Source of the DNA: Lama guanicoe
Lineage: Eukaryota
Assembly: GCA_013239625.1 (NCBI GenBank)
Contig: MU057202.1
Location: 3,299,101-3,363,100 of the forward strand
DNA: 64,000 nt
Direction of reading: 5' to 3'
Below the pieces are notes generated by a model. The model saw only the letters and a list, made by a program, of their open reading frames with translations, did not search any database and was not told where the DNA came from. How positions within the stretch are numbered: the first letter of the stretch is position 1; each line of letters starts with the position of its first letter. The position numbers and the translations under genes are program-made. Of the stretch, positions 1 through 62,930 are shown one piece after another.

Positions 1-817
1 AGTTAGAACACAATTAAGGAGTCCCAGGCCCAAGTCCACGTCAAGGTCAAGACACAGGGCGAGGCCTCTGCAGGCCCTGGGTTCAGCCCCACGGAGCAGG
101 GGCAGACAACAGAGCATCCTTTAGCCTTCTGCTGAGAACCAGAGGGCGAGTGAGCCCCCATCAGAGAAATCCTCACCTCTGGCAATCTGACCCCGCAACC
201 CTAAATCCTGTAAACTGAAAAGTCAGAGGCAGCCTGCTTGGGCAAATGTGCTCCATTCAGCAAATGTTGACCCTTATCAGTAACACAAGGAGCCATCAGG
301 CGTAAGGGGGCTCAGGGAGGCTCTCCATCCTCTGCCTGCCCAGAGCCACGTTCACCTCTTATCCTCCTGCCCCAGGACTTGGGGACACGTGCACCTGGCC
401 ACCCATACGCCGTTTCGTGTGCACACGCTTGTCTTCTCCACGGGCAGCCAGCTCCACGCCATCCCTCACATCCACGGCCAGTGCACGTTCACGTGCACAC
501 GCTCACCTTGACCCGGTCATAGAGAATCACGACATGGACCCCAGCCTCGTTCCCCTGGGCGTCCACTAGTGTGTCCTTCTGTGGGCACCCCACAAAGCCT
601 GTGGGGAGACAGCACGGGGGCCATCCTAGGGGCTGCTCAGACCCCACCCACCTGTCCCCGTGGCATCCTAGAGAGGGAATGCAGGGCTATCCAGGGATAA
701 GGGAGAAGACACAGCCCTCGTGTTGCAGGGGGCCCACTGCCCTGCCCCAGGTCGTAGGCAGCCGCCTCTGCTGCCAGGGTGCCCCCTTCAGGCTATGCCT
801 GCCTCTCGCCCCCACAG

Positions 818-1051
818 AAGACGTCTTCCCCTGCAAGGACTGCGGCATCTGGTACCGGAGCGAGCGGAACTTGCAAGCCCACCTCCTCTACTACTGTGCC
901 AGCCGCCCGGGCTCCGGATCCCCCGCCACAGCCGTCCCCGACGAGAAGCCCAAGGAGACTTACCCCAACGAGCGCATCTGCCCCTTCCCCCAATGTCGCA
1001 AAAGCTGTCCCAGTGCCAGCTCCCTGGAGATCCACATGCGTAGCCACAGCG
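818..1051 (+). CDS. ZFPM1: ZFPM1 (FOG1) internal coding exon: zinc fingers 1 (CCHC) and 2 (C2H2)
   Basis: Translates DVFPCKDCGIWYRSERNLQAHLLYYCASR...YPNERICPFPQCRKSCPSASSLEIHMRSHS, recognisable FOG1 sequence. Acceptor cccacag|aag (tandem NAGNAG, alternative start 821); donor G|gtgagg. Confidence 0.96.
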
Positions 1052-1326
1052 GTGAGGCCCCACACCCCCACCAAAACCATGTGGGCTCGACACACCTGTC
1101 CCGGGGTTGCCCACCAGCCGGGGATGTGCTGGGAGGGGGTCCTCCCACCTGCCCAGGGCACCTGGCCCATCCACAACCACCTGGACAGCCAGCTTGGGGC
1201 TGGGCCCCTGCCAGATCCTGGGAACAAGGGCCAAGGAGGCTGAGTTTAGGGCCCTCCGCATGGCCTGCCGCGGCCCCCGGCCAGCTGGGCTTGGGACCCA
1301 CCCCCTCAATGGGCCCTGTGTTCCAG

Positions 1327-1422
1327 GAGAGCGCCCCTTCGTGTGTCTCATCTGCCTATCTGCCTTCACCACCAAGGCCAACTGTGAGCGGCACCTCAAG
1401 GTGCACACAGACACACTGACCG
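1327..1422 (+). CDS. ZFPM1: ZFPM1 coding exon: zinc finger 3 (C2H2)
   Basis: GERPFVCLICLSAFTTKANCERHLKVHTDTLT; acceptor ttccag|, donor |gtaggt; phase 1/1, consistent with neighbours. Confidence 0.96.
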
Positions 1423-1507
1423 GTAGGTGGGAGCCAGGAAGGGGTCAGACAGGGGGCGTCTCTGGGGCCCACCCACCCAGGGTCCTGATACCACAGCCTG
1501 CCTGCAG

Positions 1508-1654
1508 GGGTCTGTCACAGCTGTGGCTTCATCTCCACCACAAGGGACATCCTCTACAGCCACCTGGTGACCAACCACATGGTCTGCCAGCCGGGCTCTA
1601 AGGCTGAGATCTACTCACCAGGGGCCGGGCACCCCACTGCCAAGCTCCCCCCAG
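1508..1654 (+). CDS. ZFPM1: ZFPM1 coding exon: zinc finger 4
   Basis: GVCHSCGFISTTRDILYSHLVTNHMVCQPGSKAEIYSPGAGHPTAKLPP; acceptor cctgcag| after an 85-bp intron; donor |gtgagc. Confidence 0.95.
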
Positions 1655-1853
1655 GTGAGCCCCGGGGGCCCCCTGAGGACCGGGGAGGGGGAGGCAGGCT
1701 AGTCCGTGAGAGGGGGTTGGTGTCAGTCTCGGCCTTGGCAGCCACAGCCTTTGCCCAGCGCAGCAATCCCTTCCTGCCCTCCCCCGCCCTCAGGTCTGGC
1801 CCAGGCAGGTCCTGCTCCAGCCCTGAAGTGTGGCCCCTGGGGTCTTCCTGCAG

Positions 1854-3554
1854 ACAGCCTGGCCGGCTTCCAGCAGCACACGGCATTGCACGGTCCTTTG
1901 GCCTCTGCTGACCTGGGCCTAGCTACTGCCCCATCGCCTGGACTGGACAGGAAGGCGCTGGCCGAGGCCACCAACGGAGAGGCCAGAGCGGCCCCCCAGA
2001 ACGGGAGCAGCGGCGAGCCCCCCGCGACCCCCAGGAGCATCAAGGTGGAGGCGGCAGAAGAGCCCGAGGCGGAGCCAGGGCCCCCGGCCCCGTCGCGCAC
2101 GCCATCGCCGCCCAGCCCCAGCCCGGTGCGCGTCAAGGCGGAGCTGTCCAGCCCCACACCCGGCTCCAGCCCGGGGCCCGGCGCGCTCTTTCTGCCGCAG
2201 TTGCCCGCGGCGCCCCCGGCCTCCGAGATCCTGGCCAAGATGTCTGAGCTGGTGCACAGCCGGCTGCAGGCGGGCGCGGGGGTGGGCGCTCCGGCTGGCC
2301 TCTTCGCGGGGGCTCCCAAGGGCGCCACGTGCTTCGAGTGCGACATCACCTTCAACAACATCAACAACTTTTACGTGCACAAGCGCCTCTACTGCTCCGG
2401 CCGCCGCCCGCCCGCCGCCGGGCCCCCCGCCCGCAGGCCCAAGGCGGCCCCCGCCCCGCCGCGCGCGCCCCCAGCCCCGCCGCCTGCCGAGGCCGACGCA
2501 CCGTGCTCGTCGCCGGGCCCCGGGACGCGCGAGGACGAGGCCAGGAGCGCGGTCACGCCCGAGGCCGAGGCCGAGGCCTGCGGCCGGGGCAGCGAAGGCA
2601 GCCTGAGCCCGGGCAGCGGGGCGGACGAGGACGACGACCCCCGCCGGACGCTGTGCGAGGCCTGCAACATCCGATTCAGCCGCCACGAGACCTACACGGT
2701 GCATAAGCGCTACTACTGCGCCTCGCGCCACGACCCACCGCCGCGCCGGCCGGCACCTGCTGGGACCCCCGGGTCCCCCGCGCCCGCCGCGCCGCCGGTG
2801 CGAACGCGCAGGCGCCGCAAGCTCTACGAGCTGCACGCGGCCGGCCCCGCCCCGTCGCCGGCCGGCCCCGCCCCTCCCGCTGCGCCAAGGCGGAGGTGGA
2901 GGTGGAAGCTGTTCCACTCCTGCCGAAGGCCCCATCGACCTGAGCAAAAAGCCGCGGCGCCAGACGCCAGCCGCCGCCACCCCGGGCCCCGCGCCGGGCC
3001 TGCCGGCCCTGGCCGACTACCACGAGTGCACGGCCTGCCGCGTGAGCTTCCACAGCCTAGAGGCCTACCTGGCGCACAAGAAGTTCTCGTGCCCCGCCGC
3101 CCTGCGCCGCCTGCGCGCCTCCCCCGAGGACCCGCCCGCCGTCGTGTGCCCCTACTGCCCCCCGAACGGCGTAGTCCGCGGCGACCTCATTGAGCACTTC
3201 CGCCTGGCGCACGGCCTGCTGCTGGGCAAGCCCCCGGCCGGCCCCGGCGCCGAGGCCCGGACGCCCTCGCCCGCCGCCCAGCGCGACGGCCTCAACGGCC
3301 AGGACCTGCGGGAGCCGCCCGCCGGCAGCCCACGGCCCGGCCCGCCGCCGGCCCCGTCCCCTGAAGCTGTGCCGGCGCCCCCCTCCCACTCGGACAAGGG
3401 TGTGCAGACCCCCAGCCAGGGGTCAGCGGCCCCCGTGCCCAACGGCAACCACAGGTACTGCCGCCTGTGCAACATCAAGTTCAGCAGTCTGTCCACCTTC
3501 ATCGCCCACAAGAAGTATTATTGCTCCTCGCACGCGGCCGAGCACGTGAAGTGA
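1854..3554 (+). CDS. ZFPM1: ZFPM1 terminal coding exon: zinc fingers 5-9 and CtBP-binding PIDLS motif; apparent frameshift at ~2845-2920
   Basis: Acceptor cttcctgcag|AC. First frame: DSLAGFQQH..., [54 protein letters not shown]. Second frame: [12 protein letters not shown] (2925-2960), [63 protein letters not shown], stop TGA at 3552-3554. Confidence 0.93.
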
Positions 3555-9289: not shown

Positions 9290-10785
9290 ATGGGCAGGCC
9301 CCTCCTAAGGCCCCCAGGACACTTCTTTAGGCTGATTCAACACATTCGAGACCTCCACCTTCAGGAGGTGGTCAAACCCAGACTTCTCGCCTTCCTTGGC
9401 AGTACTGCATGGCCACAATATAAACTTGACAATGGCAGCCAATGGCCCAAAAATGGCACTTTTGATTTGCACATTCTCAAAGATGTCGACAATTTCCTCC
9501 AGTGCCATGGGAAGTGGTCAGGGGCCCCCATCTCCAAGCCTTTTGGTGCCTCCGATCTCGTCGCTCCCTCTGCCGGTCCTGCTCTCCCCACCAGACCCCC
9601 TCCTACGTGAACCCCCTCCTCGGCAGCCCCAGCTCCCCAAAACAAAAGCCGACCCCGAAAATCCTCTCACCCCCACCAATCCTTCCTCATTCGAATTCAG
9701 CTGCAAAGACAAACCCCCTCCTTCTCTCCACAACCCCGACCCTCTCCGCCGAGGCCCCCCTCCCCCCCACACATGAGATCTCGCACCCAACCGTCAGCCC
9801 GACTCCACAACCCCTCCGTGAGGTGGCCGGCACCGATGGCATCCTCTGAGTCCGTGTCCCCTTTCCCTCTCCGACCTCTCAACCATTGAAAACGATGCGG
9901 GTCGTACTCGGCAGACCCTGTCACCTTCCAGAAAAGAACTGCTGTATCTCACCCGGCCCTGTGGCCTGGCCTGGCGTGACATTCACTTCCCTCACGTCTC
10001 CCGCGAGGACCGGGGCGTATCTGGGTGTCAGCTGAGGGCCATGCTGCCACTCTCCGCCAGCAATGCCCCAACAATCACCCCGGCGGCGGCAGCGGTCCCC
10101 AAGACAGACCCCGACTGAGACTGTCAGGCAGCCTCCCTAGGCCGCCCAGGGCGTGCCCATCCCGTTACCTGCCTCCTGACAGGCGTGGGAAAGGCGGCCC
10201 TGAGAGCCGTTAATTATGAAAAGGGCGAGGAGATCACCCAAGGTCTGGACGAAAACCCTGCCCTCTTCCTTCCTCGTCTTGCTGAGGCCACGCAAATTAT
10301 ACCGGCCCCGACCCCGATTCCAGGGAGGGCCGCGCTTACCTTCATCTACATTTCACATCCCAGTCCGCCCAGACATCAGGAAAAACCCACAAAAACCAGA
10401 AGGCGGTCCGCAAACCCCTCAGCGAGACCTCATAAAAGTGGCCTTCAAGGTCTCCAGCAGCAGAGAGGAGGAGGGAAAAGCCTTAAAGGGAAAGCGCGGT
10501 CAGGCCAAACGCCAGGTGCTGGCGAAGGCCCCACAAGAAGGGGCAGCGTCTTCCCAAAGACAAAGGACCTGGGGGCCCCCGGCGCCTGCCTCAGGCGCGG
10601 CAAAACTGCCCGTCGGGCAAGCGCTGCCCCAGCCCTAGGCCCCCACCAGGGCCCTGCCCGCCCTGCAAGCAAAAGGGACACTGGAAACTGGACCGTCCTC
10701 GGCAGTACCCCTCTGGCCTGAGCACACCCCGATCCCTGTCCACTCTGCCGTGACTCAGCTCCTCGGCCGGGCCACTGAAGACCGA
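9290..10785 (+). pseudogene. gag: ERV gag remnant (MA, CA/MHR, two NC zinc knuckles)
   Basis: MG start at 9290; TAWPQYKLDNGSQWPKNGTFDLHILKDVDNF..GKWS then, after a frameshift, QAFWCLRSRRSLC. MHR-like AVNYEKGEEITQGLDENPALFLPRLAEA (~10206-10290). Degenerate knuckles GACLRRGK.. and GPCPPCKQKGHWKLD (~10650-10695). Confidence 0.88.
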
Positions 10786-13700
10786 CAAGCCCCGGGGTCC
10801 ATTGCCCCACCCCCACCCCTCACAATGAGCCGCGGGTAACTCTGACGGTGTCTGGTAAACCTGCATCATGCCTGGTGGACACGGGCCACCTATCCTGTTT
10901 TACCAGAATCCCAAGGACGTCGCACAGGTCCTCCACCTCTGCTGTGGGCGCTGACGGCACTTCTTCACGACCAGGGCAAACCAGCCCTCCTCCGCTCCCT
11001 ACGCCCAGCCCAGCTCACCCACGCCCTCCTAGTGACCCCGCTTGCCCAGCCTCCACTCTGGGCTGAGAGGCCCTCCGAACGCTCATGGGGGGCGATCCAT
11101 CTTTACCCCTCCCACTTTGATCTCCTCTGCTGTCAAGAAACACCCCAACTCAAGCATGCCTGCTCGGTCTCTCCTTCTTCCTGAGGCGACCCTGGTCACC
11201 CGGGGTGCATCACAGCCCGTGGTCACCTCCCACCACACCCCCACCTCGATCTCCCTCCTAGACCCTCAACCACAGTCTGTCAGACACAGCTCCCTCTGGC
11301 CTCCAAGGACTCAGGGCCTAAAGGCATAATCGCTCGTCGTCTGAGAGCCGGGCCCCTTCGGCCGACAGTCGCTCACAGCACCCCTATTCTCGCCATAAAA
11401 GATGAATGGGACCCACCGTTTGGCCCAACCAAGCTATGTCGCCATCCACCCACCGTGCCTAGTCCCTGTACCTCCTCTCACATGTCCCTCCTCAGGCCAC
11501 TCGCTTCCCTGTCCTTGACCTCAAGGACGCCTTCTTCACAGTCCCCTGAGTCCCTCCTCCCCGGAGCCGTTCTCCTTTACCTGTCCCGATCCAGACACCA
11601 CCCGGTCAGCACAGCTGACCTGGACAGTCCCCGCTTATTTGGCCAAGCCTTAAGCCCTGGTCTCTCCCTCCCTGATCCGTCCCCTCGCCTTCTCTTACGA
11701 TACGTGGACCGCTTACTTCTATGCAGTCCCTCAAAGGAACGCTCCATTTCCCATACTACCCAACCACTAAACTTCCTCGCCGACCGCAAGTACCAAGTGA
11801 CCTCCACCAAAGCTCCAGTGTCCCGGCCACAGGTCACTCATCCTGGGCTCGCCATTACCCCGTCACTCCAGGCCATTCCCGAAGAACGGAAAGCCCTCAT
11901 TGACACGTCGCCTCTTCCAAGCTCAAGACCCGAACTCCTCTCCTTCTTCGGCCTGGCCAGCTACTTCAGAATCTGGACCCCCAGCTTCAGCCTCCTACAG
12001 AACCCCTCTCCCAGGCCGCGGAGGGAGAGCCGCAAGAACCCCTGGACCCGACCACACCCATTTCTGGCCCAATCAAAACACTAAAGCGGGCCCGAACGCA
12101 TGCACCCACCCGAGGGCCCCCCAGCCCTACAAAGCCTTTTCACCTCCACCTGACTGCCACTCAGAGCCTGCCCTGGTGTCCTGGGCCAGACACTCGGAGA
12201 GACTCCCTGCGCAGTGGCCTGTCGTCGTGGCCGGATGGTCCCCATGCCCGAAAACCCTCGGTGCCGCTGCAGCCCTGGCAGCCGAAGCCAGAATGTTCCC
12301 TCTTCGCCAGCCCCTCCTTGTGTCCTCCTCACGCAGTTCACAGACCTACGCGGCCATCGCGCCCTTCTCGACCTCTCTCCCTCTTGCTTACAACAAATAC
12401 ACGCCACGTTCTTCCAGGACCCTCCCTGTCCCTGCAGCACTGTACCCTCTTAACCCCACCACCTTGTACCAACTCACTCGGATCCCTTACAACCAGCCAC
12501 TCACGCCTCAAGGTGCTAGACTCCCCTCCCTGTCTCTTCTCTCACCTCTCTGACCTCCCCTTCCTGAGGCCCCTACCTGGTTTATCGATGGGAGCTCTTT
12601 CCAGGACCTTCATCCCCAAGCAGGCTATGCCGTCATTACACAGGACACCGTCCTCAAAGCTAAGCCCCCGGCCCCTCGCCCTACCTCACAGCAAGCTGAA
12701 CTCATCACACTTACCAGAGCCCTCACGTTACCAAAGGTGAGCAAGGAAATATCCACACCCACCCTAAATGTGCGTCCCGTGCCATTCGCACCCACGCCGC
12801 CATGTGGCAGGAAGGGGACTCCACACACACGGAACCCCGTCTCTAACGGAAAACTGACTCACAGACTCTCAGAGGCAGCCTTCCTTCCAGTGGCCGAAGC
12901 TACGCCCCTTTGCAAAGGACGCCCAGCCCCAGAAAACGACGCAGCCTGAGGCAGCGCCCCTGTAGAGCCAATGCAGAGCGGGCCGCAGGGAGGCCGTCGA
13001 GCCCCAGAACACACCCCAACTCCTCCCCGCCTTTCCACCAACCGAGCCCACACACACCCGCGGTGAGCAACACGCACGTCCAAGTCAGGGCTGCCCTCCA
13101 GTTCGGGCATGGTTCGTGCTCATTCCCGAAATCGTGCTCCCCAAATCACAAGGAAGCCAGATCCTAGGGCAAATCCACTCTCAGCTGCCCTCCGGTCACC
13201 CCCCACCAGACAGCAACCCTGCATTTCCTGTCCCCCACTTTAAACCACCTTACCGCGCGTCGCTCTTGCCTGCACTTGTTCCAGAACACCCCCTGAGGAG
13301 CCGCTAGGCCGCCAGCGGCTCCTACACACCAAGCACAAGGACAGCTCCGTGGACAAGGCCGGTGGCTGGCTTTCACCCACATGCCTCCCGACAAAAGATT
13401 GAACTATCTTCTGACCTTAGTTGACTGCTTTGCTGGCTGGACTGAGGCTTTCCCATCCGCATCAGAAAAGGCCCAGGCTGTTTCTTCAGTCTTGTGACAA
13501 CACATCGTCCCCCCGACTCGGACTCCCAGCCAGCCCACAGACAGCGGCCCAGCCTTCAGCTCCCAGATCCCCCAACAGCCCATCAGAGCCCCGGACACCT
13601 CCCGGAAGGTCCGTACCCCTCACAGGCCCCAGTCCTCCGGTGGGGGGGGCAATGCCCTGCTAAAACGGCGTTGAACTGAACTGGCTCTAGAGCTAAAACT

Positions 13701-20565: not shown

Positions 20566-22419
20566 TCAGCGGCCGCAGGAGACGCTAACGCCCAGGTGCC
20601 CACTGCACCCAGCCCCTCTGTCGCCCCGCCTACTCCCTCATTCCCGCCTGCCTCCGCCCCACACAGGTGCCCCACTGCGCAGGCCACCTTTGGGCCACCT
20701 CTGGACACCAGACTTCCTCCCAAGTGTCCACGGAAAATCTGCTTTAATGAGCATCACAGGAGCCCAAGGGGAAAATAATCTCAAAGGGCATGCGGATGGG
20801 TCAGGGCCCCAAGCCTTTGTCCTGATCGCAGAGGTGCGCCCACAGGGGGACAGGTGACTGCACCTGAAGGTCTCTGGGCTCAGGGTCCTCATCGCAAAAG
20901 GGGGACAGGTGGAGGTCCCCCCGACCAGGTCATCACTGGGGTAAACGTGAGTCCTGCGTGCACTGGGCTTTTCCCGGGCCTGGGGCCCCTAACCGTCAGT
21001 AGGGACCACCAGGAGGAGGGTCCAGTGGACAGGCCAGCAGGGCCCCTGGTCACCTTAGGTGGCCGCTGTCCTGGCACTGTCACGTACAGTGGCCATGCCC
21101 ACTTACCCATGCACTCTCCCCTCACTGGTGGCTCAGGAGGATTGACAGCCACGTGCACCTATGGAGGGCCAAGCATCAGTGCATCCAGCTTGGGCGCCAC
21201 AGCCAGGCCGGGTCAAGGCACCGCTTTCCCCGACCCGCGTGGGGCTGGACCAGCCAGCACACAGCAGGCCGCCTGTTGGGCCCTTGACCCAGGAGCCAGC
21301 GCTGCCGGGTCCTGGCTGCCCCCATGAGGCCCTCTGCCCAGGCTCTGCTAGCGCTTGAAGTCACAGCAGAGGTGACGACTGCTGATCTGGGTCCCAGCCA
21401 CCATTTTGAACCCACTTCCACAGGGAGCCTGGTCCCTGGGCAGTGAGGGGAGGAAACGGGCCTGCAGTTCTGAGAGCCATGGGCACCCCCCAAGCTGGCC
21501 CAGAAACACATCTCGCTGCTGGGTGGGGGCACTTTCTGCCACCTGCCCCCTGAATTGTCAGTGCCTTTGGCTGCAGTGTCCACCCAGATAAGAGATGGAG
21601 GTGGAAGCCTGCCCACACCCTGAACTCCCCCGTGGGCCCTGGATGAAGGGGGCACTGGTCAAAGCCGGCCTCACGGGAGCAGAGCTTGACGCTTGGGGGC
21701 GAGGGGCTCAGGAACGGCTTCCTACTTCTGGCTGAGGTGCTGGAAGAAACACAGCACTCTGCTCTGTTGACGACTGTGACCCAGGCTGAACGCAAAGGGA
21801 AGGAGGCAGGAGGCTTAGGTACCGGCTGTCCTTAGCACATGTGCGTGGCCAGTTGGAGAAGACCTCCAAGCCAGTGGGGGTGCAGCATGAGGTGTCTCTG
21901 GGTGTCGGTGGTTGGAGCTGGGTGCCCTTTCTGTGTGGCACCATCCACCTTAGAAAATGCCACATGCCAGCTCTGCCCACAGCCAGACTGACAGGGTGTC
22001 ACCAGAGACTGGAAGCACATTCCTGTAATACCTGGGAAAAAGTGCTTGAAGTGGTACGTAGGAGCAGTGGAAGGTCATAATTCTACACCGATGGAGGCTA
22101 GGGTACCCCCAGCCTCCCGTTCCTCACCTCCCGCGCTTCTGGAGGCGGGAGCACTACCCTTATGGAACCCCCCTGGCCAGGACACCCTCAGGTCCTAGCT
22201 CGCGGGGACAGAAGTCCCTGGGGAGCTGGGAGCTAAGAGCCACTGGCAAAGGGGTGTCTGCCCCTCTCCTGGCCCTGCCAGCCGCCAGCAGACAGGACCC
22301 AGCAGGGAGCAGACCAAGGGCGGCAGGAGGAGCCAGGCAGGAGGAGGGCAGCCCTCAGACGATGCTGAAACCAGGCCCCTGCTGCTGGGGTGGGCGCCCA
22401 GCTGCCTGAGGGCCCGCGA

Positions 22420-22729
22420 CCCCACTCTTGCCCATCTGCATCTTCCGGGGGGGGGTCTCTCAGAACCCACCGTGGCTGGTGGTGGTGAGGCAGGCTGGGC
22501 GCCTCCGGGCTCCTCTCCTTGGCACCCGCATGACCGCCCTGGACTTCTGGGACCTGAGGCAGTAGGTGATGGGGCTGATGGGGCTGATGGGGCTGATGGG
22601 GCTGTTGGTGTAGACTCAGGTGCGGCAGAAGAGGAGGACCCAGGGGTCCTGGAGAGGCTGGGCCCCCAGGGGGCTGAGCGTCCACAGGATGGCAGAGAGC
22701 AGCACGACCACCACTCGCACCTCGGTGAC
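22420..22729 (-). pseudogene. TRHR2: TRHR2 pseudo-exon C (TM6, TM7, C-tail); 3' end approximate
   Basis: Acceptor cccacag|GTC ACC; VTEVRVVVVLLSAILWT..AQPLQDPWVLLFCRT*; TGA at 22618-22616; (SPI)x4 in place of NPxxY; then TYCLRSQKSRA. Confidence 0.87.
22568..22603. repeat. Perfect 9-bp tandem repeat (GATGGGGCT)x4 inside TRHR2 TM7
   Basis: Directly visible; reads SPI x4 on the minus strand. Confidence 0.95.
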
Positions 22730-23446
22730 CTGTGGGCTGGCGGGGCTGTGGAGCCACTGGTGCTGGGCCCACCGCATGGCTGGTGGCCAAGCAGATGCCA
22801 CCAGAGCCACAGCCATGGCTGCTGCCCCAGGACGAGGCTGCTGAGTAAGAGATGAGATCGTTACTGAGATAATCACACGACTGCTGCGTGTCCACTGGGC
22901 GCTGTGCTAAACGTTTCCCGTGCAGAGACCCAGGGCCGGCATTCAAGGCTGTGCTGGTTGATACGCTCGTGAAACAGTCCCACCTCCGGTGGTAAATACC
23001 CATGCCCTGAGCCTCTTGTGCACCCTGCCCCCCAGGCCTCTCAGGTTCCCAGCGAGCAAAGACCGGATGCTGGGAACAGGGCCCTGGGACCCTGATGCCG
23101 CAGTGAGGCCCGGGTGGACAGCACCGCTGCTGGCACTCTGGTTGCCTCCCCTGCACCGGCCTGCCCCCCAGTGTGCTGTTGTCACCTCCACTTGAAGGAC
23201 GAGAAATCAGGGGCTCAGGGGGAAGGAGCACACAGCACGCACACCATGAACCAGCTTCTCCTGCAGCCTGCTCGTGCTCACCACTGTCCCAAATGGCCCC
23301 ACCTGCACCCATTCTGGTGGGGGTTGGGGGGATGTCTGTGAGGGGGACGTCCAGTGCGGGGGGCGGGTGCTGTGCCTGCACCCACACCTCTCCCACGTCC
23401 CCCATCTCTGGCAAACCGGCCCCTCCCATCCCAGGAGACCTCGTAC

Positions 23447-23886
23447 CTGCTTCCTGGGAGAAGGGAAGCCTCTGGCCCGGGGGCAGCTGCCGGTCACGTC
23501 CCCACCAGGCCTGCGGGGCTGCCTCTCCCAGGCTCCTGCCTCCCACCGGGCCTCTCTGCCCGCATGCTGGCACCTGTGCTGGGGCAAGTGGGCGGGGGGA
23601 ACCACGGAATAAGATCCTTGCCATGAGCCCGTAGAGGGCGGTGGCCACTAGCAGGGGCGTGACAAAGAAGACCGTGAAGTCCAGCAGGTAGATGGGCAGG
23701 CAAAGGCCGCGGGACACCGTGTAGCTGCACCACAGGCCCCGGTCCCCGTCCACATCGAGGTCCACCAAGAAGAACCAGAGCAGGCAGTAGGTGGACGTGG
23801 CCCCCTAGACGCCTGCCATGATGCGCTTGGCCTGCGCCAAGGTGCACACGGTATGTGCCCTCATCCGGTGGCAGATGGCGATGTAC
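23447..23886 (-). pseudogene. TRHR2: TRHR2 pseudo-exon B (ERY tyrosine to ICL3)
   Basis: Acceptor cccgcag|G TAC ATC GCC and donor AAG CAG|gtacga are both intact. TAG at W4.50 (23807-23805). Length 440 nt implies a net +1 frameshift, located in ICL3. Confidence 0.9.
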
Positions 23887-24452
23887 CTGCGGGCCACAGG
23901 GTCATGTGACCCACCCACCTGCCCATGTGATTGGGCCACGGTGGGGACACTGACCCCGCTCGGCCAATCAGATTCCCCGCTGGGGACCAAATGTGGCCTC
24001 GATGGTTGAACTGGCCCTTTTATAGGGACCTGGAGGGCCATGACCATCTGGGAAGCGAGGTGGCCATGCTGAGGGAGACTCGGGCTGCAGAACACAAGGA
24101 GCCAGTCTTGAGAGGAGAGGGCAGAAGGTGAATCGGAAGAGCAGAGCTTGTCTGCCTCTCGGGGGTACAGATCAGAGCCAGAAGAGCCCCGAGAGGGTGC
24201 CCAGTCCACTGCCCACATTCCGGGCAGGGAAACTGAGCCCAGAGAAGTGCAGGGTGCCTTGGCATCCAGCAGCAAGTCAGCAGCTGTGGTGAGACGACAA
24301 CCTGCTTCCTGGTGCCTGCCCCCTCGCCCACCCTGGATGCCAGTTTACTCCAGGGTCCCACAGGCTCCCCCCCATAAATGGGGAGCAGCCTCAGTTTACC
24401 AAGGATCACGGCCAGGAAGCCCTGGCATGCAGGAGGGGCCGGGAGCGCCGAT

Positions 24453-24787
24453 CTCTCCACGGTGAACTCCAGGACGGAGCAAGAGGAGGCACTGATGCCC
24501 AGGAAGCCAGTGTAGCCACAGACCCACTGCCCAGCCAAGCTGTGGGAGACGATGGGCAGCCCTGCAGCCACCAGTACGGCAAGGTCAGCCAGGGCCAGGC
24601 GAGCCAGGTAGCAGTCGGTGGGTGTGTGTATGTCCTATGTGGTCAGCACCACCAGGACCACCACGGCATTGCCCGCAATGCCCACAGCACACACGAGGAG
24701 CAACAGGAAGACCGAGGCCACCTTGTACACGACAGGGCTTGGGACAGTGTCCCTGCAAGCCAGGGGCACCTTGCTGGGTGTTTCCCG
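24453..24787 (-). pseudogene. TRHR2: TRHR2 pseudo-exon A (N-terminus to TM3/ER)
   Basis: No ATG at the expected start (CGG at 24787-24785); TAG at 24637-24635; ~8-codon TM3 deletion; exon ends GAG AG followed by AT rather than GT. Confidence 0.88.
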
Positions 24788-25714
24788 GCCTCTTCCTGAT
24801 TTCTGTGTTGGCTGTGCAGGCACTGGAGGGGGAGGGGCTCCAGGAGGCATCCACTGCCCGCGGCCGGGCCTCCGTGAACACCGGCCTGCTCTGAGAGCCT
24901 GGCCCCGGGGACACGCAGGAACCCGGCACTTGGGACGGGACTGCTCAGTCAGGTTGAGAGAGGACCAGGAGTGCCCGTTCTGGGCTCTGCTGTAAATAGT
25001 GTCTGCGAGTCAGCCACTCTGCAAGCCTCAGTCTCCTGGTGCGTAAACACAGACAACGGTCGGACCTAAGCCGTGAGCTCGCGGGGAGGCTGAACCCGGA
25101 AGAACGCCCGGCGAGCCCTGGCCCAGCTGCCCTTTGTCGTTAGGATGCCGCACAGCATCTCCAAGCCCAGCTAGCTCAGCTGTGAAACGGGAGAACTGAG
25201 GCACCGGCTTCTCGGGGACGTGGCGAGATTCCCACGAAACGGCGGGGCCTGGAAAGTTCTGGGCCTGGAGGCTGGTTCTGGGCCCATGTCTGCTATTACT
25301 GGTAACATTAAGGCTTCAGTCATGCGGGGCCTGTTTCCCCAGCTGCCGGCAGCTGTGTGAACTGAGTGAGACGGAAGTGCCCGGGGGCCCCGGGAGCCCC
25401 AGGCCTCGGCCCCTACAGGCTCTGCTCCTGATCCGGGAAGAGCCAGCCAGCCTCCCACCTGTCGTGGTTCCCGCGCGGTCCCACACCACGCACAACCCAC
25501 CCCTCTGCCCTCTGACCCTGCTGGTGTCACTGGCCAGAAGGACCACATGCCAGCTCCCTCAGAGCCTGGACTCCCACCTCCGCAGCTACGCCCCCCATCA
25601 GCTGCACGGACCCAGGTCCCGAGCAGAGCCGAGGCCCCTGCAGCGCGGCGGAAGCGGCGCCCCCTGCAGCTCCCACGAGTCAGGGCAGGGCTGGGAGAGA
25701 AGCGGTGGCCCCAG

Positions 25715-26125: not shown

Positions 26126-27444
26126 GTCCACGTGGCCTGTGGCCCCTCACTCTCCTGAAAATGAGCCACCCTCCTGTTTAGCTGGAGGAGACAATTGCCC
26201 CAGGGTCCCAGCAGCCGCTGTGAACTCCAATTCCCTCCAAGGGCTCCAATTCCCTTCTGCTGCTGGAGGCCCATGGCCCGGGGAACAGAACCCAGCAGCC
26301 TCCCTACCTGCTGTGCAAGCCCCTTGCAGCAGGGGGGGCGCTCACCCATCCCTGCCCCTTGGCATCTCTGGGACCCTCCCCTCCCCACCTCCCTCTTCCC
26401 TCCTGCCTGCATGCGAGCCTTTCTCCACAAGACGTTCCACCAGGCAGGCAGCTGGGACCATCGTCTCCCAGCCCAGCCCCCAGGAGAAACTTGGCAGCAC
26501 TGAGAACTTACTGGCGAAGCCTCAATGCCTTCTTCCTCCTCCCAGAGGGAGACAGAGAGAGAGGAAAGGCGATCCCACAGGCAAGGCTCTTGGTCCTGCA
26601 GCTGCAAGGCCGCACACGTATGTACATACGTGCCGGGAGCTCGCACACCCAGACACGGGGCCCCGCAGCTTCTCCCCGCTCTGCCACGCCCCTCCGCCCA
26701 CACCGCGGGGCCCAGCGCCTGCCGATGCAGCTGCCCCAGCAGGACGCCCCGTGAGAAGAAGGCCCAGGACCGCAGCACCCCCTGCCTCCCCCAGGCCACG
26801 AGTTCGGCAGGCTGGGAAGGACCGGGCTAGCCAGCCGAGCCCTCCGGGCCGGACGGGAGGGGGCAGAGACCCAGGGCAAAGGTGGGGAGGGTGCGGACCA
26901 GTCCCCCTACCCATGAGTGGCCAGGCTGGGATTACCTGGTGGCTGCTGGGTGTCTGGAATCTGGAAGGGACTCTGGTGTGGGGGCCGCTCCGAGGACACT
27001 CCACCGCGATCTGGAGGGGAAGGGACTCCAAGCGCCTCCGCAGCACGTGCCAGCAGGGAGACGGGGCTCAGGACGTGTGTGGCGGCTCAAGAGAAGGGGC
27101 CCGGGCCTCGAGGCTCCAGGGAGCAGGGCTGCCCCACCCTTCCTGCTGGGGTGGGGCTGCTGTGTACCCATGAGGGCTAGCCTTTGGGAAGAGACCCTGA
27201 AGGGGCCCCTCAGCAGGAATGTCCCCAAATTGTCTCCCCCAAATGGCCAGGGGCCTGGCTCCTCAGAGGCATTTAAAACGCAGATTCCAGGCCAGGCTGT
27301 GTGTCACAGGCATGCACCCCAGGACCCGGGAGGGACCCGTAAGCATGCAGGTTCCTGACCACTGAATTGAATATCTAGGAGCAGGCCCTTGAACGCGTGT
27401 TGTAGTGGCTTTCTCTCCCAGGAAGGCCAACACCTGCTGTCTTT

Positions 27445-27870
27445 CTGATTTTTACATTTTTATTTTGGAACAGAATACATTCAGAGAAAGGCACACAGAA
27501 CATGAAGGAAGGTTGGTGAATAAAGTGTGCACGCAGTTACCACCCCCACCCTGGCTGGCTTCCACTGCTGTGCCATCCGGGAGCCTCTGTAACCAGATCC
27601 ACACGTGATGGCGTCCTGCTCACTCCACTGAGGTCAGCAGGTGGAGAGTCACCCTGGCCGTGGGTGCAGTAGCTCACCGTTCCCTCAGCTGTGTGACTCT
27701 CCCCTAGAGGACTGGACCGCAGTGTGTCCATGCACTACAGGCTGTCGATGGACTTGGGGGGGGTCTCAGCTTGGGGGAATCACAGCCACCACTGCTGTGG
27801 ACACTCCTGTCCAAGAGTCCTGGCTGAGTGCATTTTCATCAGCTTGATCCAGAAAGTAGGATTTCCGGGA
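27445..27870 (-). mobile_element. Old L1 3' end fragment
   Basis: ttttattttggaa..atacattcagagaaag-gcaca; later gttgatggac-ttggg..cagc-ttggg..ctgctgtggacactcctgt, typical of antisense L1M 3' UTR. Confidence 0.55.
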
Positions 27871-28764
27871 CCTGGCTGGACTCAGGACCACAAAGATGAG
27901 TGGAGAAGGGGGAGGACCGGTGGGGAGGGCAAAGGGTGACAGAAGAGACGGCACACTTGGCAGGCTGTGGTCTCCACTGCCCCCAACAAGCACCCCAGCC
28001 CCCACAGGGCTCCCCGGAGCACTGGGAGGGCCTGAGGGGCTCAGCGGTGCCTGGTGGACAGAGGGTTGCCCTGTCTCTCCCCTTCTGCTGCTGCCACGCC
28101 CAGCCCACCTCTGGCTCCTCTCCTGCCTCCTCTAGGATGGCCCTCCCCCAGGAATTCAGCTCCCAGGACAGCCCCCAACTGCGGTCCTCCTGGCTGGTGC
28201 TGAAGCCACCCAGCTGGGACTAGTACCCGTCTTTGATCTCACACTTCCCTCGTCCTCCAGGCCCTCCTCCTCTCTCAGACAGAAAAGACGGCCAGAGGGG
28301 AAAAGGCATCGCTGACCAGCACCTACATAGGGAGTGCCTCCTCCACCTTGAGTTCTCACGTACTAACTTGCCTGTGGACAGTCCCCATCGCACAGAGTTT
28401 CTTGCGTCCCCACCCCCTGGTGCCCCAGGTGCAGCCAGCCTCCTCCGCCACTTTCGTTCCTAGTGAGACAGCTCTCTGACGATTTAGCTGTCCACTCAGA
28501 GAGGAAAGGACTCGGTGCTGTGTCCCCACAGCAGAAAGTCTAGCCATTAAAACTGACGTCGTAGGAGCAATCAATCGACACAGAAAGACGTTCGCAGCGC
28601 GACGAGCTAACGGCGGGCTCTGACTGGCGGGTAAGTGCTCTTTCTCGTTTGCGAAATGTGTTCAAGTCTCACAGCAACCGTCCACCAGGAGCTTAGCAAG
28701 TGGCCCGCGTGGGGCACAGCCCTCGGCCTCTCGTGGCAGTCACAGCCCTCCCCTCCTGGAGGCC

Positions 28765-62830: not shown

Positions 62831-62930
62831 NNNNNNNNNNNNNNNNNNNNNNNNNNNNNNNNNNNNNNNNNNNNNNNNNNNNNNNNNNNNNNNNNNNNNN
62901 NNNNNNNNNNNNNNNNNNNNNNNNNNNNNN
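62831..62930. other. Assembly gap (100 N)
   Basis: Run of exactly 100 n; true size unknown. Confidence 0.99.

Follow-up and report, generated by a model that had tools for sequence, protein, structure and literature searches.

A decayed TRHR2 gene in the guanaco: a unitary pseudogene of the TRH receptor family

Introduction

The TRH receptor subtype TRHR2 is patchily distributed among vertebrates. In rodents and fishes the gene is described as carrying an intron at the ERY motif (PMC3151243), TRH-R1 is reported to have its affinity and pathway in common with TRH-R2 (PMC9485831), and Trhr2-null mice are, according to a review, euthyroid with mild behavioural change (PMC7225337). Loss of TRHR2 is already in print for primates (PMC2117022), chicken, fugu and "many mammals", the last being a proposal made in PMC7587745. 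Birds are stated to have TRHR1 and TRHR3 only, and TRHR3 has been reported in dog, pig and cattle as well (PMC7587745, PMC2651185).

Here, we analysed a stretch of 64,000 nucleotides from the guanaco, Lama guanicoe (contig MU057202.1), referred to in its full length as the window, in which a preliminary description had seen a long-dead TRHR2 gene. All coordinates are those of the window unless another contig is named.

Results

The TRHR2 remnant occupies 24,806-22,355 on the minus strand and consists of three blocks matching TRH receptors, separated by two introns of 566 and 717 nt. The three-exon GPCR remnant with retained introns reported in the preliminary description is therefore present at the right locus, but the span given there, 22,420-24,787, was slightly too narrow. 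Pseudo-exon 1 (24,453-24,806, 354 nt) extends from the N-terminus through TM1-TM3 to the AG of the split ERY arginine codon and shows 58-69% identity to six TRHR2 proteins. It is followed by intron 1 (23,887-24,452), the ERY/DRY intron typical of TRHR2, with an intact AG acceptor, and by pseudo-exon 2 (23,447-23,886, 440 nt, 59-66% identity), which runs from the end of TM3 to ICL3. Intron 2 (22,730-23,446) retains both GT and AG and lies at the SRKQ|VT position common to TRHR1 and a third paralogue described below. Pseudo-exon 3 (22,355-22,729, 375 nt) contains TM6, TM7, the tail and the native stop; its identity to TRHR2 is 44-53%, and its C-terminus agrees with those of deer and bat.

The order of genes along the window is ZFPM1 3' exons, TRHR2 remnant and, from 38,749, ZC3H18. 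The 3' exons of the first flanking gene (523-3,554, plus strand) gave CCHC_ZFPM2 and zf-C2H2 matches as well as a U-shaped finger match, and we take the gene to be ZFPM1 (FOG1) rather than ZFPM2. The 5' coding exons of the second (38,749-60,300, plus strand, the gene running on) include a CCCH finger split between 45,206 and 53,173 and a PDB match at E 3e-13 to a "Zinc finger CCCH domain-containing protein" fusion, the matched name being incomplete. A PDB search with another exon of this gene was without a match and an ESM Atlas search put no name on the ZC3H18 exon; the number 18 in ZC3H18 is our assumption. Rodents presumably have the order Zfpm1-Trhr2-Zc3h18; our literature search found no paper stating it. 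The last ZFPM1 exon passes from one zinc-finger-coding frame to another shortly before the PIDLS motif (2,880-2,930, plus strand); this switch lies in a tract of 78% GC and is probably an assembly error. A broken endogenous-retrovirus-like gag-pol remnant lies between ZFPM1 and the TRHR2 fossil (9,336-13,000, plus strand), with Gag_p30 (E 7e-06) and RNase H (E 5e-04) both scoring under the cut-off, and a 100-base assembly gap is found within the ZC3H18 region (62,831-62,930).

Exons 1 and 2 of the remnant passed the Pfam cut-off for 7tm_1 (E 8e-10 and 6e-08), exon 3 alone giving no Pfam match. Among solved structures, exons 1 and 2 both matched TRH receptors best (E 8e-25 and 3e-27), the next GPCR family following at E 1e-4 to 1e-7. 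Of the 158 candidates in a protein search with exon 2, 70 came back as matches; TRHR2-type proteins with 63-69% identity from beaver, jerboa, vole, gerbil, rat, platypus and deer head the list, and reptile TRHR2-type proteins are also among the top. In a tree of 34 proteins, the mammalian TRHR2 clade (100/100) took in the remnant, which was placed within the placentals (100/100), together with horse (96/89) and as sister to the ruminants (95/88), as in the species tree, on a long end branch of 0.58; a second tree including the third paralogue placed it in the TRHR2 clade again (SH-aLRT 99). Its ERY arginine codon is split AG|G at 24,453/23,886 by an intron without a counterpart in either paralogue. 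Tree placement and ERY intron rule out a remnant of TRHR1 or TRHR3, and the best matches do not belong to another GPCR. The remnant is thus a member of the TRH receptor family of class A (rhodopsin-like) GPCRs and of the TRHR2 subtype, as first proposed.

To map the lesions, the sequence was read directly and aligned, with frameshifts allowed for, to six TRHR2 proteins, those of deer, cattle, mouse, rat, golden mole and platypus; all lesions are on the minus strand. Alignment of TRHR2 proteins to the window was the check that the preliminary description had proposed, and every lesion listed there was found again. The start codon is lost, with ACA (24,804-24,806) where relatives have ATG, a position inferred from protein alignment in which whale and deer N-termini align. 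The ICL1 arginine is replaced by TAG (24,635-24,637), as seen in both the alignment and the run contigs. At the top of TM3 (about 24,505-24,514), eight codons are missing, among them that of the disulfide Cys3.25 (TRHR1 C98), a deletion common to both Camelus models treated below. The donor of intron 1 reads AT instead of GT (24,452-24,451), and a second TAG stands at W4.50 (23,805-23,807), both Camelus models ending one residue before it. Where ICL3 begins, alignment with each of the six reference proteins shows a +1 frameshift, which lies within a C-rich run, near 23,597 (23,582-23,606). At the end of TM6/ECL3 (22,678-22,681), a seven-codon deletion in the alignment removes P6.50 and a TRH-contact tyrosine (TRHR1 Y282), and TM7 is interrupted by TGA (22,616-22,618).

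Four further lesions extend this set. In the N-terminal tail, similarity to the deer and whale N-terminus changes frame, marking a +1 frameshift near 24,779 whose exact base is ambiguous (24,778-24,790). Alignment and repeat analysis revealed a 9-nt tandem repeat in four copies (22,567-22,611), amounting to an 18-nt insertion inside NPxxY. Another TGA is aligned within the C-terminal tail (22,460-22,462), and helix 8 has a deletion of four codons. Altogether, the start codon is lost, the frame is shifted twice, stops come prematurely at four places, one splice donor is dead, and there are deletions including those in TM3 and TM6.

The tyrosine, asparagine, tyrosine and arginine contacting TRH have been named for chicken TRHR3 (PMC7587745), and the TM3-ECL2 disulfide is given as C98/C179 (PMC9485831). 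In TRHR1 numbering, C98, P281 and Y282 are deleted in the remnant, Y106 has become Phe, N110 and N316 have become Ser, and R306 is kept, so that three of the four TRH contacts (Y106, N110, Y282, R306) are lost. Owing to the lost start, frameshifts, stops, dead donor and deletions, together with the missing cysteine and TRH contacts, the remnant cannot encode a receptor; it has neither the open seven-helix frame and start codon nor the canonical splice sites, contacts and disulfide of a functional TRH receptor. The frameshifts, the deletions and the occurrence of TAG as well as TGA stops rule out a recoding of stop codons. A stop-to-stop frame of 523 codons at 22,233-23,804 was likewise rejected as a gene, as it exits the receptor frame at 23,597 and crosses intron 2.

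Fourteen DNA runs, distributed over four organism labels, contained 0.98-1.00 of the words sampled. Four of these, one per label and from four studies, were compared in full as contigs, which drop rare alleles. In each of the four, one contig covers all 2,601 bases; it is free of indels and differs by one substitution, at 22,520 or at 24,082, neither position being at a lesion. All four runs are flagged as possible sources of the window DNA, though four labels cannot all be the source. Since contigs of four runs with four labels carry the same sequence, assembly error is untenable, and the lesions are fixed in the lineage rather than assembly errors or polymorphism, as far as contigs that drop rare alleles can tell. 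Six runs listed as RNA or guessed to be RNA contained 0.06-0.24 of the sampled words, a word share without bearing on expression.

When the same genome was searched with a deer protein, 26 matches resulted (104 of 914 candidates scored), among them three TRHR-like loci; at the DNA level, exon 2 matched this locus only. An intact TRHR2 elsewhere in the genome, which the preliminary description had named as evidence against its reading, was found by neither the protein nor the DNA search of this draft assembly. Being single-copy and retaining both introns at ancestral positions, the remnant is an unprocessed and, as far as a draft assembly can show, unitary pseudogene. A processed pseudogene or retrocopy is ruled out by the kept introns and flanking genes.

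Two gene models lie over this locus in camels, namely LOC123612213 of Camelus bactrianus ("uncharacterized", XP_045361206.1) and CB1_000130039 of C. ferus ("hypothetical"). The TM3 deletion is present in both, and both stop one residue short of W4.50; the comparison of lesions with Camelus extends to these two. The C. ferus model has 86 codons in common with the window. Window and Camelus here share 16 departures from the outgroup consensus, 12 of them at constrained sites and one found in all artiodactyls and horse, and differ from each other at five codons. In the non-coding read-through, 37 of 343 residues differ (about 11%), a larger share than the 5/86 of the pseudo-exons, the numbers being small. 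Taken with the near-identity of the sequence under all four organism labels, this difference of about 11% suggests a South American camelid, in agreement with the probable camelid origin proposed in the preliminary description. Non-coding stretches at 26,548-28,309 (minus strand) serve as exons in both models. The first of them has an in-frame stop in the guanaco, and the Camelus models are therefore likely artefacts. ORF-based annotation had been predicted to miss or mis-call the locus, and two models stitched across it are a case of the latter.

At constrained sites away from indels, the window is changed at 30 of 142, compared with five in horse, six and seven in two bats and seven in golden mole; against the full-length proteins of horse and rhinolophoid bat, the difference is significant (Fisher p 5e-9, 177-site set). 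Calibrated on the non-coding difference from Camelus, the time of neutral change comes to about 54 Myr (27-96), near the base of the camel stem; resting on protein-level comparison and a constant rate, this date is indicative only.

Lesions in other species were mapped on predicted proteins, not DNA, and gene predictors can patch such models. The TRHR2 proteins of horse and of horseshoe and other rhinolophoid bats are full length. Models of deer, musk deer, muntjac, cattle and whale keep the codons broken in camelids where covered, and display their own damage: the reindeer model has a frame shift in exon 2, that of muntjac skips half of exon 2, that of yak stops in ECL2, those of baleen whales read through the intron-1 donor, and that of cattle skips 13 ECL2 residues and has two TRH-contact residues changed. 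Constrained sites are changed in deer at 21/142 (white-tailed deer, including Y5.58), in musk deer at 18/140, in muntjac at 17/132, in cattle at 10/136 and in whale exon 1 at 12/76; compared with horse, the excess is significant in deer (p 5e-4) and not in cattle (p 0.15). Among the best 120 of 970 matches (one name per cluster), there was no TRHR2 of pig or toothed whale and no full-length one of carnivores, primates or camelids. A scan of metagenome contigs for mammalian TRHR2 DNA yielded 80 loci with a best identity of at most 60%, none of them mammalian TRHR2.

At the position of mouse Y90 (about 24,519, minus strand), before TM3, a tyrosine is replaced by cysteine in camelids and baleen whales, not in ruminants; this sharing is homoplasy or incomplete lineage sorting. 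Signs of TRHR2 decay also appear outside the ungulates (proteins P0095, P0118, P0310 and P0004): Hipposideros armiger has His at the TM6 TRH-contact tyrosine, and the models of Rhinolophus ferrumequinum and beaver are gapped or truncated.

The guanaco genome also contains an open TRHR1 of 398 aa with all four TRH-contact residues kept and a TRH precursor exon with six repeats. The third TRHR-like locus (contig C55221, 11,440,600-11,444,842, minus strand; locus L009 of genome G000) has two exons, a GT-AG intron and an open frame of 390 aa, retains all key residues including the four TRH contacts, and is without the ERY intron. Its product falls outside both TRHR1 and TRHR2, in a group with proteins of marsupials, elephant, ruminants and whales (SH-aLRT 98), on a short camelid branch (0.09), and is 65% identical to a galliform cluster, the fork with the galliform pair being left unresolved in a quick tree. 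Orthologue models of goat, red deer, porpoise, narwhal and elephant look patched or decayed. No database entry among the matches was named TRHR3 outright, and the ESM Atlas returned only generic class A GPCR clusters. On account of its grouping and galliform identity, the avian set of TRHR1 and TRHR3, and the reports of TRHR3 in dog, pig and cattle, this paralogue is likely TRHR3. Describing the fossil as the loss of "the second TRH receptor", as its original title did, is therefore misleading, since TRHR1 and a second intact receptor are kept.

Discussion

Both Camelus models share the TM3 deletion and the W4.50 stop with the guanaco, and 16 common codon changes stand against five differences, so that the loss predates the camel-llama split, given as 16.3 Ma (PMC12127551). 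This and the 30 changed constrained sites bear out the original view that the gene died long ago. Full-length proteins in horses and rhinolophoid bats indicate that the laurasiatherian ancestor had a working TRHR2; the camelid loss would consequently be separate from that of primates, and the ruminant and whale models, free of the camelid lesions where covered, agree with the independence from the human lineage claimed at the outset. We are accordingly quite confident that TRHR2 turned into a unitary pseudogene at an early point of the camel lineage, long before Old World and New World camelids separated, and that this was independent of the loss in primates.

A rather unlikely alternative places a single loss of function, for example of expression, in the ancestor of even-toed ungulates, each lineage then gathering its own lesions, with the open deer frames as late survivors and the camelid remnant as one branch. 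Every artiodactyl model seen is decayed or patched, the N-glycosylation asparagine is gone in all artiodactyls sampled, pig and toothed whales are absent from the best 120 of 970 matches, and the estimated 54 Myr of neutral change extend back to the beginning of the camel stem at 55-60 Ma (PMC12127551), all as such a loss would predict. However, the proteins compared have no stop, indel or splice lesion common to camelids and other artiodactyls, and the frames of deer and musk deer are nearly full-length and keep all four TRH contacts. Decay in these two has reached about 60-70% of that in camelids, which is difficult to reconcile with neutrality over 55-60 Myr, and cattle do not differ significantly from horse (p 0.15). 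An early loss on the camel lineage itself accords better with these points, even though the excess of change at constrained sites in ruminants and whales means that relaxation may predate the camelid branch.

It is improbable that the locus, dead as a receptor, is still transcribed or reused, be it in the form of a non-coding RNA or of the "uncharacterized protein" predicted from a spliced model in C. bactrianus. The RefSeq model XP_045361206.1 spans the locus, the splice sites of intron 2 and the acceptor of intron 1 are intact, and a 184-codon ATG frame starts from the end of TM5 and runs off-frame; but the first exon of the model contains an in-frame stop here, its segments differ at neutral level (37/343 residues), the two Camelus models disagree with each other, and long frames are common in this region of 65% GC, with 129 frames of at least 130 codons in the window. 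Hardly any weight can be given to the idea that the lesions are assembly errors or that the remnant is a decayed duplicate of an intact TRHR2 elsewhere. The assembly is fragmented (55,231 contigs), and the last, GC-rich exon of ZFPM1 in the same window has an apparent frameshift, yet all four independently assembled runs carry every lesion, two lesions are shared by the Camelus models, protein and DNA searches found one TRHR2-type locus only, and the retained introns and flanking genes speak against a retrocopy.

The most likely mechanism for this early camelid loss is redundancy followed by drift. Selection on TRHR2 may have been relaxed through redundancy, TRH signalling being carried on by intact TRHR1 and the intact, slowly evolving and likely TRHR3; once dispensable, TRHR2 would have decayed neutrally. 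The part ascribed to TRHR3 is inferred, and TRHR3 would not be needed for the loss, since primates lost TRHR2 without keeping TRHR3. Judging from predicted proteins, the loss does not look special to camelids, the ruminant and baleen-whale TRHR2 models being patched, truncated or decayed. We give even chances to a broader scheme in which camelids would run TRH signalling on TRHR1 and a still-constrained TRHR3, TRHR2 having been discarded in the Eocene, as a mirror image of rodents (TRHR1 and TRHR2), and in which TRHR2 would be undergoing parallel loss across even-toed ungulates. If true, this would be a recurrent neuropeptide-receptor loss invisible to human-referenced screens, and camelids would offer a natural model for the role of mammalian TRHR3.

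No new mechanism is involved: mice can do without Trhr2, and several lineages are already described in print as having lost it. So far, absence alone had revealed how patchily the receptor occurs in mammals. The fossil provides a dated, lesion-mapped loss, and it accounts for two spurious Camelus gene models. Rodent TRH-R2 pharmacology is not transferable to camelids or, probably, to other livestock ungulates, and the little-studied mammalian TRHR3 is indicated as the second receptor of camelids.

Compared with known systems, the camelid loss is real but ordinary, belonging to a kind of gene loss already known, with no report of the camelid case found. Like the unitary pseudogenes of mammal-wide loss screens (PMC2864566, PMC7498332), it is a disabled sole copy at its ancestral locus. 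Trhr2 is not mentioned in the available text of PMC2864566, nor in the available passages and one supplement of PMC7498332, whose human reference means that a gene humans lack cannot appear; the available parts of the camelid study PMC12127551 do not mention TRHR. We found no paper on a camelid or artiodactyl TRHR2 pseudogene, and mouse-referenced loss tables (e.g., TOGA) may list it. The C55221 paralogue is likened to the mammalian TRHR3 reported in dog, pig and cattle (PMC2651185, PMC7587745), at a locus separate from the TRHR2 fossil. The closest intact relative is rodent Trhr2, encoding TRH-R2 (rat NP_852029.3, mouse NP_573465.1), an orthologue by tree, with three coding exons, the ERY intron (PMC3151243) and 59-63% identity in exons 1-2; the rodent gene is intact and expressed in brain, whereas the camelid copy is left without start, frame, donor, Cys3.25 and three TRH contacts. 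With the TRHR2 losses published so far, the guanaco locus shares the gene, the outcome and the proposed reason, namely that TRHR1 takes over. Those losses, as far as the sources at hand describe them, rest on absence from assemblies and do not name camelids, whereas here the fossil is in place, with its lesions mapped, evidence that they are peculiar to camelids, and a rough date.
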